A stretch of DNA of 27,260 nt from a virus (IMGVR_UViG_2541047905_000014), one strand, 5' to 3'; numbered from the stretch's first letter, positions 6,383 through 25,251 are shown. Notes: a model not told the origin generated them from the letters alone. Made by a program: numbers and translations.

Positions 6383-6844
6383 CTACTGGTTACGTTTCTT
6401 TAGTGCCAGCATGTTCTCGAAGGCTTCCTCGTAGAGCTTGTTTAGTCCACGTAGCTGGTTAAGGAGTTTGGCTTTTTCTGACGCAGGTAGAATCTCGAAG
6501 AGGTTAAGTAACTCTGCCTGTTCTTCATTGACCAGCCTCCATCCTTTGCCTGAAAAGTTATCATCATAAGTATCTGATGATCTTACATAATTCATTAAGT
6601 CTTTAAGGTCTTCTCGAATGTCCTCTGGTTTTACCTTTAACAGAGCCGCAAATTTTAGCGCAGCGTCGGTATTTACCGGTATCTTGCCGTTCAGATACTG
6701 GCTAACGGTGCCTTGAGATTCGAATCCCAACAACTCAGCCGCCAGCTCTTGAGTCAGCTTCAGCTCTTTTTTTCTTGCATTCCATGCGGCTTTTAAATTC
6801 TTGCTCGCTTCTGGAGTTGCAATCACTTCGCGTGTTTTTTTCAT
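6383..6844 (-). CDS. HTH (XRE-family) prophage repressor, RacR/DicA-like, no LexA-type peptidase domain
   Basis: 153-aa ORF with an N-terminal helix-turn-helix (LTQELAAELLGFESQGTVSQYLNG). It is divergent from a Cro-like gene across a 107-bp AT-rich intergenic region. The C-terminus has no S24 peptidase motifs. Confidence 0.8.
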   Translation of the reverse strand: MKKTREVIATPEASKNLKAAWNARKKELKLTQELAAELLGFESQGTVSQYLNGKIPVNTDAALKFAALLKVKPEDIREDLKDLMNYVRSSDTYDDNFSGKGWRLVNEEQAELLNLFEILPASEKAKLLNQLRGLNKLYEEAFENMLALKKRNQ

Positions 6845-11790: not shown

Positions 11791-12985
<1,195 letters not shown>

Positions 12986-16242: not shown

Positions 16243-16617
16243 ATGCTCATAGATTTGGTTTTACCTTACCCGCCGACGGTGAACACTTACTGGCGACGCC
16301 GTGGCAGCACATATTTTATCTCGGAGGAGGGAAAGCGTTATCGCCGGGCTGTGGCGCTTATTGTTCGCCAGCAGCGGCTGAAATTAAGCCTGTCCGGAAG
16401 GCTGGCGATAAAGGTGATTGCAGAGCCACCGGATAAGCGTCGTCGCGACCTGGACAATATCCTGAAAGCACCGCTGGATGCGCTGACGCATGCGGGAGTG
16501 TTAATGGACGATGAGCAGTTTGATGAAATCAATATCGTTCGTGGTCAGCCAGTATCTGGTGGACGTCTGGGGGTGAAGATTTACCCCATAATGCATGAAG
16601 AGCAGGTCAAAAAATGA
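16243..16617 (+). CDS. rusA: Holliday junction resolvase RusA
   Basis: 124 aa with RusA-like RRRDLDN, DALTHAGVL and GGRL motifs. GAGGTG RBS. Confidence 0.9.
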   Translation: MLIDLVLPYPPTVNTYWRRRGSTYFISEEGKRYRRAVALIVRQQRLKLSLSGRLAIKVIAEPPDKRRRDLDNILKAPLDALTHAGVLMDDEQFDEINIVRGQPVSGGRLGVKIYPIMHEEQVKK

Positions 16618-17435
16618 AACTGGAAGATTTACCGAAATACTACTCCCCAAAATCCCCTGGCCTGACCGATGCATCGGCCTCAACGTCAAAAGATGCGCTG
16701 AGTATCACTGATGTGATGGCCGCGCAGGGCATGACACAGAATCGGGCTGAGATGGGTTTTTCTGCGTTCCTGGGGAAAATGGGCATCAGTATGAATGACA
16801 GGGTGCGGGCAACAGAATTACTGGCAGATTATGCACTCAGTCGGTGCGATCGTGTGGCGGCGTTGAGAAAACTTCCGGCAGAAATAAAACCGGTAGTGAT
16901 GCGCATTATGGCTTCGTACGCTTTTGAGGATTATGCCCGCAGCGCAGCGAGTAAAAAGCAGTGCCCTTGTTGCTATGGGGAAAAATTTATTGAAAGCATA
17001 GTTTTTACAAACAAGGTCCAGTATCCGGATGGTAAGCCGCCGGTATGGGCAAAGTGTACGAAAGGTGTGTATCCGTCTTACTGGGAAGAATGGAAAAAAG
17101 TCAGGGAGGTGGTAAAAGTTGCCTGTCCGGAGTGTGGCGGAAAGGGTGAGGTTTCCACCGCCTGTAAGGATTGCCGTGGGCGTGGTGTCGCCATTCACCG
17201 TGAAGAGTCGGTAAAACGTGGTATGCCTGTTATCAGAGACTGCCAGCGTTGTGGTGGTCGTGGCTATGAAAGACTACCATCAACGGAGGCATTTAATGCT
17301 ATATGCGAGGTGACAAACCAGATAACACGCGCGTCATGGGAAAAAACAGTTAAGAAATTCTATGATGCGCTGGTGACCCGGTTTGATATTGAAGAAGCAT
17401 GGGCTGAGCGGCAGTTAAAAAAGGTAACTAGGTAA
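16614..17435 (+). CDS. Late-gene antiterminator Q-like protein with CxxC zinc-finger repeats
   Basis: 273 aa, ATGA-coupled to rusA. Contains CPCCYGEK, CPECGGKGEVSTACKDCRGRG and CQRCGGRG motifs. Followed by a promoter-like element and a short-transcript terminator, as expected for Q / PR' / tR'. Confidence 0.75.
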   Translation: MKLEDLPKYYSPKSPGLTDASASTSKDALSITDVMAAQGMTQNRAEMGFSAFLGKMGISMNDRVRATELLADYALSRCDRVAALRKLPAEIKPVVMRIMASYAFEDYARSAASKKQCPCCYGEKFIESIVFTNKVQYPDGKPPVWAKCTKGVYPSYWEEWKKVREVVKVACPECGGKGEVSTACKDCRGRGVAIHREESVKRGMPVIRDCQRCGGRGYERLPSTEAFNAICEVTNQITRASWEKTVKKFYDALVTRFDIEEAWAERQLKKVTR

Positions 17436-17578: not shown

Positions 17579-17654
17579 GGCCCTTTAGCTCAGTGGTGAG
17601 AGCGAGCGACTCATAATCGCCAGGTCGCTGGTTCAAATCCAGCAAGGGCCACCA
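17579..17654 (+). tRNA. ileZ: tRNA with CAU anticodon, ileX/ileZ-like (tRNA-Ile2, lysidine-modified) rather than tRNA-Met
   Basis: Cloverleaf: acceptor GGCCCTT/AAGGGCC, anticodon loop CTCATAA, T-loop GGTTCAAATCC, encoded CCA. Close to E. coli ileX by memory. Confidence 0.85.
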
Positions 17655-17754
17655 TCACAAACCGCCATTAGCTTATCAGGAAGAGCAGACGACGCGATAA
17701 CAGGGTTGTTGGTGCGGGGGCGGGTCCCCGATGGCGGTCCATTATCGGTATTCA

Positions 17755-17828
17755 GCGTTGTTAGCTCAGCCGGACAGAGCAATTGCCTTCTAAGCAATCG
17801 GTCACTGGTTCGAATCCAGTACAGCGCG
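17755..17828 (+). tRNA. argN: tRNA-Arg (UCU anticodon)
   Basis: Acceptor GCGTTGT/ACAGCGC, anticodon stem ATTGC/GCAAT with loop CTTCTAA (anticodon TCT), T-loop GGTTCGAATCC. Confidence 0.85.
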
Positions 17829-17941
17829 CTATATTCATTCTTCCAGATTCCTTCCGGCAGAGCCTTATACTGAAATATACCTGGCTCAGGATATTGTTGA
17901 AAATATTATATGTTTGTCAAAAATAAAAGTTCTGTTAAGTA

Positions 17942-18742: not shown

Positions 18743-19078
18743 TTATGGACTTTGTTGTTTTAGTCCATAAGGACATATTTGCAGAGTGCAACGGTTATTA
18801 AAGCATTCATTCAATACGTTATCTGTATTTGTAGGACATTCCTGGCTGTTTTTGATTAAATTCCAGAATGTTTTATTGAATGGTGCTACGTTGTAAATGG
18901 TTACAGGTAGCACTTTGTTATTGAGCATGATACCTGTGTGAGTCAGTGTAAATATACTTTCAGGAGGTAAGAAAGCATCCGATTGATACCAGATTATTAA
19001 TTTTATTTTACTCCATATGACTGAAAAAGATATTCCGCATGATGGCTGGATAACTGTATCAATCACAATCCACTTCAT
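18743..19078 (-). CDS. Hypothetical Cys-containing protein (111 aa), AT-rich, antisense to the late operon
   Basis: AAGGAAA RBS 5 nt before the ATG at 19078. Low GC. An 11-bp perfect inverted repeat (CCTTATGGACT...AGTCCATAAGG, 18741-18775) overlaps its stop codon. Confidence 0.45.
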
Positions 19079-19338
19079 TTAGTTTCCTTGTTTATGTCTT
19101 GCTGGTGATGTTCTGAAAAGTATAAATGATATTTTTGAATGTAAACCATAGAGCAGAATTATTTTTCTGATGTTGTTTATTGTTTATTTAAATGCAGGGT
19201 GGTTTATATCTCGTCTTGTAGTTTATCCATGCATATCTGCTTGATGATGAGGTTTTTATTTAAGGTATGGTTTTGTGTTTTTTCTGTATTACATGTCAGG
19301 TATTTTAAAGAATTATTTTTCAGATGGTGGAAAGAACC

Positions 19339-21300
19339 ATGGCATTTAAACACTATGATGTTGTCAGGGCGGCATCGCCGTCAGACCTTGCGAAACGACT
19401 GACACAAAAACTGAAGGAGGGGTGGCAGCCATTTGGCAGTCCGGTGGCCATCACGCCTTATACCCTGATGCAGGCCATTGCGGCGGAAGGTGATGTCACC
19501 ACACCTGTGGTGGTGAAGCCGTCGGATGGAGAAGGCGCAGTTATCAGCACCACCAGCAACCCGGAGTATTACTTTGTTGTTGCCCTGGCCGGGCAGTCAA
19601 ACGGTATGGCGTATGGTGAAGGGCTTCCGCTGCCGGAGACATATGACCGTCCGGACCCGCGTATTAAACAGCTGGCGCGTCGCAGCACTGTCACGCCGGG
19701 TGGTGCGTCCTGTAACTACAATGACATTATTCCTGCGGACCACTGCCTGCATGATGTTCAGGATTTGAGTAAGTTTTCACACCCGAAAGCCAGCGCAGCT
19801 CAGTATGGATGCGTGGGGCAGGGATTACATATCGCGAAGAAATTGTTGCCGTTTATTCCGGCGAATGCCGGTATTCTTCTGGTTCCGTGCTGCCGTGGTG
19901 GTTCTGCATTTTTGGCGGGCGATGAAGGTACCTTCAGCGAATCCACCGGCGCAAGCGAGACCTCGGCACGCTGGGGTGTTGATAAGCCACTGTACAAGGA
20001 CCTGCTTACCCGTACTCAGGCCGCACTGAAGGCCAACCCTAAAAATATTCTGCTTGCAGTGGTCTGGATGCAGGGCGAGTTTGATTTGAAACAGGGTGCA
20101 TACGCCACTCAGCCGGGGCTGTTTGATTCCATGGTGGAAAAATATCGTTCTGACCTGTCGGAATTCGGAGGTCAGTGTCTCGGGGGCTCTCCGTCATCGG
20201 TTCCCTGGATTTGTGGCGACACGACCTACTACTGGAAGCAGACTTATTCTTCGCAATACGATGCGGTGTATGGTGCATACAAGACGAAATCCGCAAAAAA
20301 AATCTTCTTTGTGCCGTTTATGACGGATGAAAACGGGCGAAATGTGGGTACCAACGAGCCGTCAGAAGATCCGGATGTTGCGGATATTGGGTATTACGGA
20401 GCCGGTGGTCGAACGGACGCCAAAACCTGGACGACGGCCGACCGTAAAACGCATTTTGGATCATGGGCACGTCGTGGGATTATTTCCGACCGTCTGGCAA
20501 CGGCGATTCTTGTGCATGCCGGGAGAAACGCTGAATTCATTACCGGAAAACAGCCTGATACGGTGAAGCCCACCGGACCTTCCGGTGAAGGTACGGAGAG
20601 AGAGCCGGAAGCCCCGGTCAGTAACCGAACCCTGATGAGTCTGCTGGCGTCCGGCGAAGACCTGGCATCACAGGGCTGGCGCTATTATCACAAACCGGCG
20701 AGCGGAGACAATGTTAACAAAAACATTGCTGAAGCGGTGGTCAGTGATGCGGGGGCTACGGGAGGTAAGGCCCTGCAACTGAATAAACCGGAAAACCACA
20801 TCTGGTTTCTGGAGCATGATGCAGCCGGACAGGGAGTGGAGTTACTGAAGAAGGGGGGACGTGTGAGCGTACGGTTTAAGTTGCCGGGTTCACTGGTGCC
20901 GAATCAGTTTGCCCTGGGCATTTACTGGCAGTTGTCGTCCCTGCCGGAGGGAGTGACGCTGGCAGAGGAAGGCAACGACATGCTGATGTCCTTCTTTCTG
21001 CAGACGGATGCGACGAACCTGAACGCGATGCACCACAAGAAGCCGAATGCGAAGCTGGAAACGTTCGGGGTCTTTGATAACGGATGGCACACACTGGCTT
21101 TTGAGTTTGCCGGAAACAACAGCATTCAGGTGACGCCGGTACTGGATGAGAAACGGGGGACGCCGTTCACACTGGTGAAATCTCCGGCATCAGGGGCGGC
21201 GGACAAACTGCAACTGACAGGCATATCAAAGGCGGCGACATATACGCTGCTGATTGACAGTGTGAAGGTGGAAGTGAACAACGCGGACATCGCGGCATGA
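19339..21300 (+). CDS. nanS: Prophage sialate O-acetylesterase NanS-p (DUF1737 N-terminal domain plus SASA/SGNH esterase)
   Basis: N-terminus MAFKHYDVVRAASPSDLAKRL (DUF1737-like) and the catalytic-serine block VVALAGQSNGMAYGEG (GQSN motif). Size and position downstream of Q-tRNA match nanS-p of EHEC prophages. ATG at 19339 follows GGTGG; the track start at 19324 has no RBS. Confidence 0.85.
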   Translation: MAFKHYDVVRAASPSDLAKRLTQKLKEGWQPFGSPVAITPYTLMQAIAAEGDVTTPVVVKPSDGEGAVISTTSNPEYYFVVALAGQSNGMAYGEGLPLPETYDRPDPRIKQLARRSTVTPGGASCNYNDIIPADHCLHDVQDLSKFSHPKASAAQYGCVGQGLHIAKKLLPFIPANAGILLVPCCRGGSAFLAGDEGTFSESTGASETSARWGVDKPLYKDLLTRTQAALKANPKNILLAVVWMQGEFDLKQGAYATQPGLFDSMVEKYRSDLSEFGGQCLGGSPSSVPWICGDTTYYWKQTYSSQYDAVYGAYKTKSAKKIFFVPFMTDENGRNVGTNEPSEDPDVADIGYYGAGGRTDAKTWTTADRKTHFGSWARRGIISDRLATAILVHAGRNAEFITGKQPDTVKPTGPSGEGTEREPEAPVSNRTLMSLLASGEDLASQGWRYYHKPASGDNVNKNIAEAVVSDAGATGGKALQLNKPENHIWFLEHDAAGQGVELLKKGGRVSVRFKLPGSLVPNQFALGIYWQLSSLPEGVTLAEEGNDMLMSFFLQTDATNLNAMHHKKPNAKLETFGVFDNGWHTLAFEFAGNNSIQVTPVLDEKRGTPFTLVKSPASGAADKLQLTGISKAATYTLLIDSVKVEVNNADIAA

Positions 21301-21902: not shown

Positions 21903-21978
21903 GCCTGCGCAAGGGACCATCGGTGTGTGCCGGTGGTCTTTATATTGTTGTGAGCTTCCGGATAACGGGAGACGGGGT

Positions 21979-22194
21979 ATGTACCAGATGGAAAAAATCA
22001 CAACAGGTGTGTCATACACCACGTCAGCGGTGGGAACGGGCTACTGGTTCCTGCAGTTGCTGGACAGGGTTTCCCCGTCTCAGTGGGCGGCAATAGGCGT
22101 GCTGGGGAGTCTGCTGTTTGGGCTGCTGACGTACCTGACTAACCTGTATTTCAAAATCAAAGAGGACCGGCGTAAGGCGGCGCGGGGAGAGTAA
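21979..22194 (+). CDS. Holin S (71 aa) with dual-start motif
   Basis: MYQMEK... gives Met1 and Met4 starts. Hydrophobic segments and a charged C-terminus ([13 protein letters not shown]). GGAG RBS. It heads the lysis cassette. Confidence 0.85.
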
Positions 22195-22198
22195 AGTG

Positions 22199-23089
22199 AT
22201 GAATAAAAAATATGAACTGGTTGTTAAGGGGATAAATAATTACGGGGATAAGGTTACTGTTACTGTGAAGCCGGAAGGTGACGGGCAAGCGTCGCTGTTG
22301 TTGCCAGATGTGGCGATTAGTCTTGACCGTACTGAAGGTGCCACGCTGGAGTTTTACGAAGCTGAGGCGAAAAAGCAGGCGAAGCAGTTTTTCATGGATG
22401 TTGCTGCCGGGTTATGTGAATGGAACGAACCGTTGCCGGAAAAGCGCCCCGTAATTTTAGAGGCGCAGGATGTGTTGATAACCTACAAAGGAAAGCTACC
22501 GGGAAGAATTACTTGTTCTCTGAAGATGCCGCCGTCAACACTGCGGTCAGAAAAAGATGATGTTGAATCACGTATTGAAAAACTGGAGAGCTACGTCGTT
22601 GAGCTGAATAAGAAATGGTCGATATTGGTGCCTTCTGGCGATGAAAAGCAGTTTGCTGCGTTTGACGATTATTGTCGGAAAGTGATGAGCAGAAATCTCG
22701 CAGAGTGTTTCAGTATTCATAATGATAATTTCAGTGAGCTGGAATGGGAGTGTAACCGGCCATCCTTTGTTGTATCCGGTGATGCTGGGAAAATAACCAT
22801 CTCAGAAAATGGGAAAGTAACACCTCCATCGCACCAGCACAGTGAGGAGCTCATTGAATTTGCCATTGATTACCTGAAGAACAATAAAAAGCAGGGGCTG
22901 ATGAAGCGCGTTGGCCGTTGCATGGGATATCTTCAGGTAGCCGCTGAGATTGAAGCGCTGGCCAGTGGTGCTGATAAGGATGCAATTGTGCGGGAGGCTC
23001 TTCTTCGTGATTTTAATACTCCACCCTTTAAAAAAGTGCCGGCTTACTGGCTTCATCCGGGGCTGACTTATCTTAAAGTGCGTATTTAG
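22199..23089 (+). CDS. Hypothetical protein (296 aa) inserted between holin and endolysin
   Basis: ORF begins 4 nt after the holin stop and ends 36 nt before the endolysin. Moderately AT-rich. No catalytic motif recognised. Position is analogous to ydfR in Qin, but this gene is about three times longer. Confidence 0.65.
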   Translation: MNKKYELVVKGINNYGDKVTVTVKPEGDGQASLLLPDVAISLDRTEGATLEFYEAEAKKQAKQFFMDVAAGLCEWNEPLPEKRPVILEAQDVLITYKGKLPGRITCSLKMPPSTLRSEKDDVESRIEKLESYVVELNKKWSILVPSGDEKQFAAFDDYCRKVMSRNLAECFSIHNDNFSELEWECNRPSFVVSGDAGKITISENGKVTPPSHQHSEELIEFAIDYLKNNKKQGLMKRVGRCMGYLQVAAEIEALASGADKDAIVREALLRDFNTPPFKKVPAYWLHPGLTYLKVRI

Positions 23090-23125: not shown

Positions 23126-23659
23126 ATGAACACCAAAATCAAATACGGCCTGTCGGCTGCCGTTCTGGCGCTGATTGCCGCTGGTGCGCCTGCGCCTGAC
23201 ATTCTCGACCAGTTTCTGGATGAAAAGGAAGGCAACCACACCACAGCATACCGTGATGGTGCAGGTATCTGGACCATCTGCCGTGGTGCCATCATGGTGG
23301 ATGGCAAACCTGTCGTTCCGGGCATGAAGTTGTCGAAGGAAAAATGCGACCAGGTTAACGCCATTGAGCGTGATAAAGCGCTGGCGTGGGTGGAGAAAAA
23401 CATCAGAGTGCCGCTGACCGAACCCCAGAAAGCGGGGATCGCGTCATTCTGTCCGTACAACATTGGTCCCGGTAAGTGTTTCCCGTCGACGTTTTACAGA
23501 CGAATTAATGCTGGTGATCGAAAAGGTGCCTGCGAAGCGATTCGCTGGTGGATTAAGGACGGTGGCAGAGACTGCCGTATTCGTTCAAACAACTGTTACG
23601 GTCAGGTATCCCGTCGTGACCAGGAGAGCGCGCTGGCGTGCTGGGGTATCGACAGATAA
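23126..23659 (+). CDS. SAR endolysin R (T4-lysozyme-like, GH24)
   Basis: N-terminal signal-anchor-release segment (LSAAVLALIAAGAPAP) and the catalytic E...D...T spacing (EGNHTTAYRDGAGIWT). Confidence 0.9.
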   Translation: MNTKIKYGLSAAVLALIAAGAPAPDILDQFLDEKEGNHTTAYRDGAGIWTICRGAIMVDGKPVVPGMKLSKEKCDQVNAIERDKALAWVEKNIRVPLTEPQKAGIASFCPYNIGPGKCFPSTFYRRINAGDRKGACEAIRWWIKDGGRDCRIRSNNCYGQVSRRDQESALACWGIDR

Positions 23660-23815
23660 GCAGAATATTTTGCTGAAAAATGAGGAATGGCCACGCGGGC
23701 GGATAACACGAAATCCTGCGAACTGGCGAAACGTAAGTGAATAAAAGTAAAAACCCCGTTTGTTGGCACCAAGCGAGGTTTTGTGTTTCTGACCTTGAGT
23801 AAGGCAAGGGAGAAC

Positions 23816-23998
23816 ATGGCGAAGTGTAAACGAATTCTGTTGAGGTTGACTATGAAAAATGGCCTTGAACTGAAAGCGCCTGTAACTGATGACATCAGCA
23901 GAGCACTGGCTTTTGCCATTAAGTGGGTGGCGGTCGGTGTTGCTGTGTCCCCGATGCTGTATGGGCTGGCAAAACTGGTCATTGCGTTGAAATCGTGA
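23816..23998 (+). CDS. Hypothetical small protein with C-terminal hydrophobic helix (60 aa)
   Basis: GGGAG 3 nt before the ATG at 23816. Lies between endolysin and Rz. Confidence 0.3.
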
Positions 23999-24012
23999 AG
24001 GGAGGATTAAGC

Positions 24013-24144
24013 ATGTCAGACAAACTCATAACGCTGGCGAAGATCCTCTGTGTAATTGTCGGCATTTCATTTTCACTAATGCTGGTTGCTCTTTTTCTTT
24101 CCATGGCCTGGATGATGTTGTCTTCGTCGGGGTTGCTGGGGTGA
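24013..24144 (+). CDS. Small hydrophobic membrane protein (43 aa), translationally coupled to Rz
   Basis: GGGAGG RBS 6 nt before the ATG at 24013. Its stop overlaps the Rz GTG (GTGA). Almost entirely hydrophobic ([26 protein letters not shown]). Confidence 0.4.
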
Positions 24145-24614
24145 ACATAAACCGAATGCTTTCCGCGTTTATCGTTATTCTGCTGGTGGCCTGTGGTGCG
24201 CTGTGGATGGCAACAGACCATTACCGTGATAACGCGATTACCTACAAAGCGCAGCGCGATAACAAAGCCAGTGAACTGAAGCTGGCGAACGCAACCATTA
24301 CTGATATGCAGGTGCGCCAGCGCGATGTTGCTGCGCTCGATGCAAAATACTCGAGGGAATTAGCCGATGCGAGAGCTGAAAATGAAACTCTTCGCGCTGA
24401 CGTTGCCGCTGGTCGTAAGCGCCTGCGGATCAACGCCACCTGTCCAGGCTCCGTGCGTGAAGCCCCCACCACCTCCGGCGTGGATAATGCAACCGGCCCC
24501 CAACTGGCAGACACCGTTACACGGGATTATTTCACCCTCAGAGAGCGGCTGATGACGATGCACAAGCAACTGGAAGGGGCACAGGACTATATCCGCACTC
24601 AGTGCCTGAAATAA
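24141..24614 (+). CDS. i-spanin Rz
   Basis: Strong similarity to lambda Rz by eye ([14 protein letters not shown]...[19 protein letters not shown]). The true start may be the ATG at 24156 rather than the GTG at 24141. Confidence 0.85.
24367..24552 (+). CDS. o-spanin Rz1 (lipoprotein embedded in the +1 frame of Rz)
   Basis: Lipobox LVVSAC and proline-rich [14 protein letters not shown], as in lambda Rz1. Confidence 0.8.
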
Positions 24615-24924
24615 GTTTTGTTGATGCGCCGTATCGTCGCTATATTCCCTCATTAACAGAGACCGCAGCCCGACAGGGAGACTCCTCTGCGCGAGTGTGC
24701 GGGGATAATTAAAAACGATGCACACCGGGTTTTTACCGCGTTAATGATTCGCGGGTTTATCCCGGTGCGATGGTGGAAGAAACAGGAAGCTGTATTACAG
24801 AAAGTGCTACTACTGTATCCCGATGCGATGTATGTAATGTGAGTCAGATAATGGCACAGGATGTGGTGATGTGGCAGTCTGGAACACAGGATATATTGTC
24901 AGAATAAGACCCGTAGGAATAAAA

Positions 24925-25251
24925 ATGAAAAGACGCCTTTTACTACTTTTTCTGTTATCTGTCCTGGCAGTGGGATGCTCGCAGCAAAAAGCTGATGAGC
25001 CCCGGCAATTAGTGACGGTGTATCCACGATATCCGGAATATGCTGCAGCAAATTATATCAAGGGGCTGGTTGAGGTTAAGTTCGATATTGGTGCTGATGG
25101 GACTGTGACACGGATCGTTTTTCTCCGCTCAGAGCCTCATAATTTGTTTCGTGATGAAGTGGTGAAGGCCATGGCGAAATGGCGATTTGAAAAGAATCGC
25201 CCCTGTCAGGGAGTGAAGAGACAATTTATCTTTACGCCGTCACGTCCCTGA
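24925..25251 (+). CDS. Lipoprotein with TonB C-terminal-like domain
   Basis: Signal peptide plus lipobox (LLSVLAVGC). The mature part aligns by eye with E. coli TonB C-terminal domain: PRYPEYAAANYIKGLVEVKFDIGADGTVTRIVFLRSEPHNLFRDEVVKAMAKWRFEKNRP versus [60 protein letters not shown]. AGGAA RBS. Confidence 0.7.
   Translation: MKRRLLLLFLLSVLAVGCSQQKADEPRQLVTVYPRYPEYAAANYIKGLVEVKFDIGADGTVTRIVFLRSEPHNLFRDEVVKAMAKWRFEKNRPCQGVKRQFIFTPSRP

Follow-up and report, generated by a model that had tools for sequence, protein, structure and literature searches.

A long-form YdfR family gene between holin and endolysin in a lambdoid prophage, with a modular anatomy and a tentative connection to RNase E or RNA

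The late region and the gene between holin and endolysin

The stretch of DNA analysed here (the window; 27,260 nt from the virus IMGVR_UViG_2541047905_000014) is the left half of a lambdoid prophage. It opens with an integrase gene and early genes that are split by an IS-type transposase, continues with genes for DUF968, RusA and antiterminator Q, and after Q carries two tRNA genes, IraM on the reverse strand, and genes for a NanS-p-like esterase, DUF1378 and DUF826. Its end is occupied by the holin gene (S), the gene under study (the target gene), the endolysin gene (R), two small ORFs, Rz/Rz1, a TonB_C lipoprotein gene and Nu1. Q drives the late operon that holds the target gene, which lies approximately 4.8 kb into this Q-dependent operon. 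The main features of this region are:

16614-17435, + strand: antiterminator Q (PF03589 Antiterm, E = 2.2e-54)
21979-22194, + strand: S21/P21-type class II holin, 71 aa (PF04971, E = 7.2e-33; phrog_9876 and phrog_20 holin)
22184-22189, + strand: Shine-Dalgarno-like GGGGAG preceding the ATG at 22199 by 9 nt, within the 3′ end of the holin gene (read directly)
22199-23089, + strand: target ORF, long-form YdfR family, 296 aa, 33.4 kDa, pI 5.95, predicted to be soluble
23126-23659, + strand: lysozyme-family endolysin with a SAR-like hydrophobic N-terminus (PF00959, E = 2.4e-24; maximum 19-residue Kyte-Doolittle value 1.74 at residue 9)
24141-24614, + strand: Rz spanin (PF03245, E = 2e-47)
24367-24552: Rz1, embedded in the Rz ORF

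The target ORF is on the + strand and runs from an ATG at 22199 to a TAG at 23087-23089 (891 nt including the stop codon, 296 aa), with an in-frame GTG at 22196 as an alternative start. A gap of 4 nt separates the holin stop codon (TAA, 22192-22194) from the target ATG, and a gap of 36 nt follows the ORF before the endolysin ATG at 23126, in agreement with the preliminary description, which had placed an 891-bp ORF at these distances from its neighbours. The holin N-terminus, MYQM, is a dual-start motif (Met1 and Met4), an arrangement that is typical of S21.

Both the GC content (0.41-0.48) and the GC3 (0.42-0.51) of the target gene are below those of its neighbours (0.54-0.56 and 0.55-0.71, respectively), which bears out the earlier remark that the gene is moderately AT-rich. 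No transmembrane segment was detected in the target protein, whose top Kyte-Doolittle value over 19 residues was 0.75, compared with 1.7 for the holin and the endolysin, and no signal sequence was found. Because it has neither, the product is predicted to be cytoplasmic, and it lacks the transmembrane segment of which holins, antiholins and membrane lysis regulators have at least one. Searches of Pfam, NCBIfam, PADLOC and the PDB matched the protein to no catalytic, defence or structural family, so the view that it carries no catalytic or transmembrane motif held on both counts. A promoter and terminator scan around the target gene gave nothing above shuffled sequence, and no + strand promoter-like site was present between 18377 and the gene. 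The Shine-Dalgarno-like sequence, the 4-nt spacing from the holin and the lack of a promoter- or terminator-like site that stands out all fit the late co-expression that had been proposed from the position of the gene, which is probably translationally coupled to the holin.

Several further features of the prophage were recorded. An IS-type DDE transposase (PF01609 and DUF772; 11859-12839) is inserted in the early region. Downstream of Q, tRNA-Met and tRNA-Arg(tct) genes are followed by a reverse-strand ORF that matches the anti-adapter IraM of E. coli ATCC 25922 (17579-17829 and 18743-19078). The NanS-p-like esterase gene (19324-21300; DUF1737, SASA and DUF6645, 658 aa) is intact in the window, and its ATCC 25922 counterpart is annotated as frameshifted, so either the window derives from another strain or the ATCC record contains an error. 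A terminator-like hairpin (21912-21941; 13-bp stem with 6 GC pairs) lies within the late operon between the DUF826 gene and the holin start and is presumably read through under Q antitermination. The interval between endolysin and Rz (23660-24140, approximately 480 nt) contains two small hydrophobic ORFs, 23783-23998 (phrog_1115, without an assigned function) and 23923-24144, both annotated as hypothetical proteins in ATCC 25922; these are further uncharacterised passengers of the lysis cassette. Just after Rz/Rz1, a 126-aa ORF (24871-25251; 'TonB family protein' in RefSeq) features a lipoprotein-like signal (…LAVGC) and a TonB_C domain (E = 1.1e-12). Lambda bor occupies the same position.

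Domain anatomy, family and coding status

Residues 1-100 of the target protein match Pfam DUF1327 (PF07041; E = 2.7e-40, 136.9 bits against a gathering cut-off of 25), a correspondence that the preliminary description had suggested checking for the N-terminal ~100 aa, and the protein as a whole matches PHROG 1085 from end to end (residues 1-296 of 296, E = 1.5e-189), a family that carries no functional annotation. Relatives are named 'YdfR family protein' in RefSeq, and mention of DUF1327 in the literature is purely descriptive. The small ydfR gene of about 100 aa that had been described for the same slot in Qin was confirmed: in this cryptic prophage of E. coli K-12, YdfR (P76160, 103 aa) is encoded between the essQ holin and the rrrQ lysozyme. 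Qin YdfR belongs to the same Pfam family and its N-domain is 46% identical to the target over aa 1-74, but it has no counterpart to target residues ~75-296 and so possesses neither the helical linker nor the C-domain. The target protein is three times longer and, with its linker and separate C-domain, does not conform to the single-domain form of approximately 100-115 aa represented by Qin YdfR and YYZ_gp44.

Module boundaries were defined from an alignment of length variants (alignment A1), AlphaFold2 models and DNA breakpoints, all of which agreed:

22199-22420, + strand: N-domain, aa 1-74, three beta strands and a long helix; DUF1327 core; AlphaFold2 pLDDT approximately 70-87; dN/dS approximately 0.5
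22421-22537, + strand: aa 75-113, second part of the Pfam DUF1327 match; conserved in E. coli; AlphaFold2 pLDDT 25-35
22547-22711, + strand: helical linker, aa 117-171, charged, coiled-coil-like and highly variable; AlphaFold2 helices 119-146 and 149-171 at low confidence; dN/dS approximately 0.9
22763-23086, + strand: C-domain, aa 189-296 (approximately 108 aa), a beta-meander and then four helices; present in no catalogue searched

The C-domain was modelled alone by AlphaFold2 with a pLDDT of 87.9 and a pTM of 0.80. Its characteristic motifs are H214, GRCMGxLQVAAEIE and DxxxPPFK..W..PG..YLK.RI, and an alignment of 50 sequences showed ten invariant columns (H214, L226, G239, G243, L245, Q246, A249, I251, P276 and K278) alongside 26 that are near-invariant. 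The family and structure searches that had been recommended for the gene returned DUF1327 for the N-terminal part and no match for the C-domain in Pfam, NCBIfam, PADLOC, the PDB or BFVD; among solved and viral predicted structures, no informative fold neighbour was detected. A Pfam scan of the 50 aligned family members yielded no second family, with DUF1327 itself matched in only 10 of them. Candidate matches to the C-terminal part were rejected as noise, namely the DagF aldolase (E = 0.01, 15 bits), PbeC (E = 0.02), LSm3 (E = 0.7) and, in a profile search, beta-lactoglobulin (E = 0.14). An internal duplication relating the N- and C-domains was ruled out (hhalign probability 0.15%).

At the DNA level, blocks of homology with relatives end or resume at nt 22203, 22534, 22611, 22638, 22741 and 23088/23120, the last of which is 6 nt before the endolysin ATG. 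The breakpoint relative to the 114-aa forms is at 22534 (blastn), and those at 22611, 22638 and 22741 fall in the linker region. In the 325-330-aa forms the linker is extended by a 33-aa insert, and in the 268-aa forms a different sequence takes its place. Such mosaicism, for which the conserved end of the holin gene and start of the endolysin gene serve as anchors, is usual among lambdoid phages.

Copies of the gene with 100% identical DNA are present in E. coli ATCC 25922 and many other strains, and the target is 85-100% identical to many E. coli alleles listed as 'YdfR family protein' from prophages and Stx phages within PHROG 1085. The 296-aa entries of PHROG 1085 show no substantive difference from it, and none has an assigned function; a 329-aa variant (e.g. 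Stx2_95) is 78% identical and carries the 33-aa linker insert. Among 5426 complete E. coli genomes, blastn placed the N-domain DNA (first 222 nt) in 3158, at 6716 places and up to eight times per genome, and the C-domain DNA (last 345 nt) in 787, at 970 places. The taxonomic range of the family is narrow: when 185,579 species, each represented by one genome, were scanned for the C-domain motif, only three Escherichia/Shigella loci were recovered, the Salmonella copies sitting in non-representative genomes. An exhaustive phmmer query of 1.84 billion representative proteins with aa 113-296 gave only 25 matches. Several of these are 35-46% identical over the final ~108 aa, and in each case this region forms the C-terminus of a protein of 125-314 aa.

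Of 71 copies on viral contigs that start at aa 1, 31 have exactly 296 aa, 26 have 268 aa and 12 have 329 aa, and three of 325-330 aa were also counted; frameshifts or interruptions affect only a few copies (L049, L050 and L081). Pairwise Nei-Gojobori analysis of 37 unique alleles gave dN/dS values of 0.36 for the C-domain, approximately 0.5 for the N-domain and approximately 0.9 for the linker, where the estimate is inflated by module replacement. The C-domain is under purifying selection, and the hundreds of homologues, together with dN/dS below 1 in both globular domains, indicate that the target ORF is not a chance open frame.

This contrasts with its treatment in RefSeq. In ATCC 25922 and strain 7/2, which carry the identical ORF, only nt 1-336 are annotated, as a pseudogene ('YdfR family protein; incomplete; missing C-terminus'), and the remaining ~555 nt of the same ORF have no feature (window 22535-23089; L001 6337-6891; L093 1291-1845). 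In a spread sample of alleles that are at least 99% identical, 16 of 17 likewise had no annotated feature under the C-domain, whereas more divergent 296-aa alleles are annotated as intact. Since the ORF is uninterrupted and PGAP calls no more than its nt 1-336, the pseudogene is an annotation artefact of evidence-based truncation. Surveys based on RefSeq thereby miss the most conserved part of the protein.

A profile search showed that the relatives recovered with aa 113-296 are Salmonella enterica prophage proteins of 225-338 aa that have no Pfam domain. Residues 19-295 of the target align with one of these (P0168) at 30% identity (E = 6e-26). Compared alone, the E. coli and Salmonella N-domains are related with an hhalign probability of 92.8% (E = 4e-7, profile-profile), and the C-domains are approximately 40% identical with invariant motifs. 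The target shows every element of the long form, with a DUF1327-like N-domain, a helical linker and a C-domain bearing H214, GRxMGxLQxAAEIE and PPFK..W..PG..YLK. The preliminary description had taken the threefold length relative to Qin YdfR to suggest a domain fusion or a different cargo, but the layout of N-domain, linker and C-domain already exists in the Salmonella prophage proteins. As both domains and their order are common to two genera, the long form is old rather than a recent fusion, and the ~100-115-aa YdfR proteins (Qin, 103 aa; YYZ-2008, 114 aa) look like reduced, N-only derivatives of it.

Three Salmonella loci share the order Q, HicAB, homologue, small reverse-strand ORF, holin, lysozyme, Rz and terminase. 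The homologue is therefore upstream of the holin, which is of the PF16080 or PF04971 type, and the constant feature is the Q-to-lysis late region rather than the S-R junction. The target gene has the siting expected of the family, in the late region of a lambdoid prophage beside the genes for a lysozyme and a class II holin. The long-form gene is directly followed, or overlapped at its 3′ end, by a small reverse-strand ORF (67-106 aa, without a Pfam match) in Salmonella and in some E. coli variants (L086 4849-5145, L088 4771-5091, L090 4913-5116, L002 3645-3959 and L004 3084-3344); the small ORF is listed as a 'DUF1823 containing protein' in PhiR5_1 and is absent from the window. Collectively, these data identify the target gene, with high confidence, as a genuine long-form member of the YdfR/DUF1327 family with real coding status and a modular anatomy.

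Occupancy of the holin-endolysin slot

The content of the holin-endolysin interval, a survey of which had been proposed in the preliminary description, was determined in viral contigs with a holin at least 97% identical to that of the window (80 contigs, in 71 of which the downstream endolysin was found). The slot was empty in 12 of the 71 loci, with a gap of 1-4 nt between the two lysis genes. Approximately 29 loci carry an N-only form (86-116 aa), five an N-domain plus linker (176 aa), and approximately 13 an intact long form with both domains (268-328 aa), with one further long form that is broken; the linker plus C-domain or the C-domain only is found in approximately 10, three of which are broken. 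C-only forms of 185-213 aa that start at the helical linker occupy the same slot in O103:H2 FWSEC0007 and Stx2_12E129. As N-only and C-only forms occur in the same position, the two domains need not act together.

A core lysis component would be expected to accompany the holin-endolysin pair obligatorily, and the target gene does not. The same holin and endolysin appear to work with or without it and show no co-variation with its form. A slot that is variable or empty next to a near-identical holin points to an accessory gene rather than a lysis component, and the target is very probably a mosaic accessory late gene that is not required for lysis. On comparative grounds an obligatory part in lysis is disfavoured, and a role in defence receives no support. 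Two findings had been named in advance as refuting the preliminary interpretation, namely that the protein is a well-known lysis-cassette component of characterised function or that the ORF is interrupted or untranslated in related phages. The former is not the case; the latter applies in part, in that relatives may be shorter, modular and occasionally frameshifted, and the slot may be empty.

A decayed version of the cassette was observed in E. coli ECMA0423 (L177 3773-5615) and Shigella flexneri (L176), where a holin is followed by a 209-aa C-only form with a frameshifted tail, a broken lysozyme, Rz and IS elements. This shows that the YdfR family also persists in cryptic prophage remnants.

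The family was already catalogued, though uncharacterised; what the present analysis sets out is the full two-domain architecture, the uncatalogued C-domain, the conservation across genera and the modular occupancy of the slot.

RNase E and RNA as candidate targets

The sole experimental data on any family member come from a study of K-12 YdfR (PMC13232886, 2026). A bacterial two-hybrid screen yielded the protein three times, and in this assay YdfR bound RNase E 1-597; it also co-purified with FLAG-tagged Rne 1-598, and the contact was mapped to YdfR aa 1-72. DNase-resistant nucleic acid (RNA) was likewise obtained together with YdfR, for which the authors could not exclude a contaminant source. 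In the same study, a full-length YdfR fusion with a short linker gave a signal with only one RNase E construct, overproduction of YdfR changed few transcripts, and ydfR was silent under standard growth, with almost no RNA-seq reads. Alignment of K-12 YdfR with the target is confined to aa 1-74 (46% identity), a stretch that spans the reported RNase E-binding segment, and the RNase E evidence consists of two-hybrid and co-purification data for this 103-aa homologue. A lead from an envelope-integrity screen was dropped, ydfR being absent from its main text (Paradis-Bleau 2014).

On this basis, the best explanation of the target gene as a whole, which we favour tentatively and with less than even confidence, is an accessory late protein of the long YdfR form that acts on RNase E or RNA. 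The gene would share the Q-dependent late promoter with the lysis genes, and its product might bind a cytoplasmic host factor through the N-domain at a late stage of the lytic cycle. Candidates for this factor are RNA and RNase E, the latter through its catalytic N-terminal half; these are the sole partners that have been indicated experimentally for a family member. The linker and C-domain could provide oligomerisation or a second binding or effector surface, and the outcome would be a modulated fate of RNA while the long late transcript is expressed. By analogy with K-12 YdfR, RNase E or RNA is a possible but doubtful target of the 296-aa protein, and no fold or family match ties the C-domain to any activity. 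In a more speculative version that we judge improbable, long YdfR proteins would constitute an unrecognised class of temperate-phage late effectors, in which the N-domain sits on the catalytic half of RNase E and a new-fold C-domain, through an invariant His/Arg/Gln/Lys/Trp surface, recruits or excludes particular RNAs. Such a protein could control how stable the long late transcript is, stx and lysis mRNAs of Stx phages included, either as an inhibitor or as an adaptor similar to RapZ.

Several other explanations, including some from the preliminary description, were weighed against this. A cytoplasmic protein could tune the lysis clock by binding either the SAR endolysin that is yet to be released or the cytoplasmic tail of the S21-type pinholin, T4 RIII and P1 LydB being examples of cytoplasmic lysis modulators. 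The E. coli gene fills the exact interval from holin to endolysin, with probable translational coupling to the holin, and in every locus examined, Salmonella included, a PF00959 lysozyme and a class II holin are encoded within approximately 1.5 kb of it. However, among holins that share at least 97% identity, the slot is empty in 12 of 71 loci and otherwise contains every combination of modules, so that the holin does not co-vary with the gene; in Salmonella the gene is upstream of holins from differing families (PF16080 and PF04971), with a reverse-strand ORF in between; and the holin has a dual-start antiholin motif of its own. We consider a lysis-timing regulator unlikely. A defence or superinfection-exclusion factor, carried as a moron to the benefit of the lysogen, would be in keeping with the lower, moron-like GC3 of the gene, with a slot that is hypervariable and modular in the manner of defence hotspots, and with other morons nearby (HicAB in Salmonella; IraM, the NanS-p-like esterase and the TonB_C lipoprotein in the window). 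PADLOC-DB 2.0 nevertheless provided no significant match (the best was PbeC, E = 0.024-0.049, ~10 bits), the gene lies inside the Q-dependent late operon with no + strand promoter-like site from 18377 onwards, and K-12 ydfR is nearly without RNA-seq reads under standard growth (PMC13232886), all of which make a defence role quite improbable.

Two further explanations rank lowest. Late co-expression beside a SASA/DUF6645 esterase raises the idea of a cargo that is freed at lysis and acts outside the cell like the neighbouring NanS-p-type enzyme, and as the protein has no export signal, lysis would be its sole exit route. This is highly unlikely given that the protein shows no enzyme, toxin or adhesin signature and no fold match, and that a family member interacts with a cytoplasmic enzyme. 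In addition, some Salmonella relatives have Ser or Ala instead of Cys241 in the C-domain (alignment A2), so a conserved disulphide is unlikely there. It is just as hard to credit that the ORF is non-functional mosaic debris, held open by chance in a recombination hotspot. The PGAP label on the identical allele, the many truncated and some frameshifted variants, and the linker dN/dS of approximately 0.9 could be read in that way, but the 296-aa frame is intact in 31 viral contigs, the C-domain combines a dN/dS of 0.36 with ~40% identity and invariant motifs relative to Salmonella, AlphaFold2 predicts a confident fold for it (pLDDT 87.9), and the PGAP call itself spans only nt 1-336 of an uninterrupted ORF.

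Few unexplained genes are as common in E. coli prophages as those of the YdfR family, which are found in the late region of many Stx-converting phages, adjoining the genes for toxin and virion release. If an accessory late protein of this type influences RNA decay or lysis timing, Stx and phage output could be affected; otherwise, the gene is simply another optional, mosaic passenger. A passenger in a lambdoid lysis cassette will not surprise a phage specialist, and the present analysis is of value for the RNase E lead, for the new domain and for correcting the annotation. The gains are a corrected annotation, a new domain to define, and a rationale for N-domain, C-domain and full-length constructs with which to probe the RNase E-binding claim in a phage context.

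As an optional, mosaic and late-transcribed passenger between lysis anchors, the target gene resembles other accessory genes of lambdoid lysis cassettes, such as Ant between R and Rz in YYZ-2008/933W-type phages and the lipoproteins at the bor position. These differ from it in protein family and in position, being located between R and Rz or after Rz, whereas the target is between S and R. With regard to the candidate target, several phage proteins are known to act on RNase E: T4 Srd binds and stimulates the catalytic N-terminal half, T7 gp0.7 phosphorylates the C-terminal half, and phiKZ Dip blocks the RNA-binding sites of the scaffold (PMC4980113). If the K-12 YdfR result transfers, the target protein would, like Srd, contact the catalytic half of RNase E. 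It has no sequence or fold relationship to Srd, gp0.7 or Dip, including the solved structures of Dip, and no match to it of any kind was found in the PDB. Srd, gp0.7 and Dip are encoded by early or middle genes of virulent phages, in contrast to the target, which is a late-operon gene of temperate phages.
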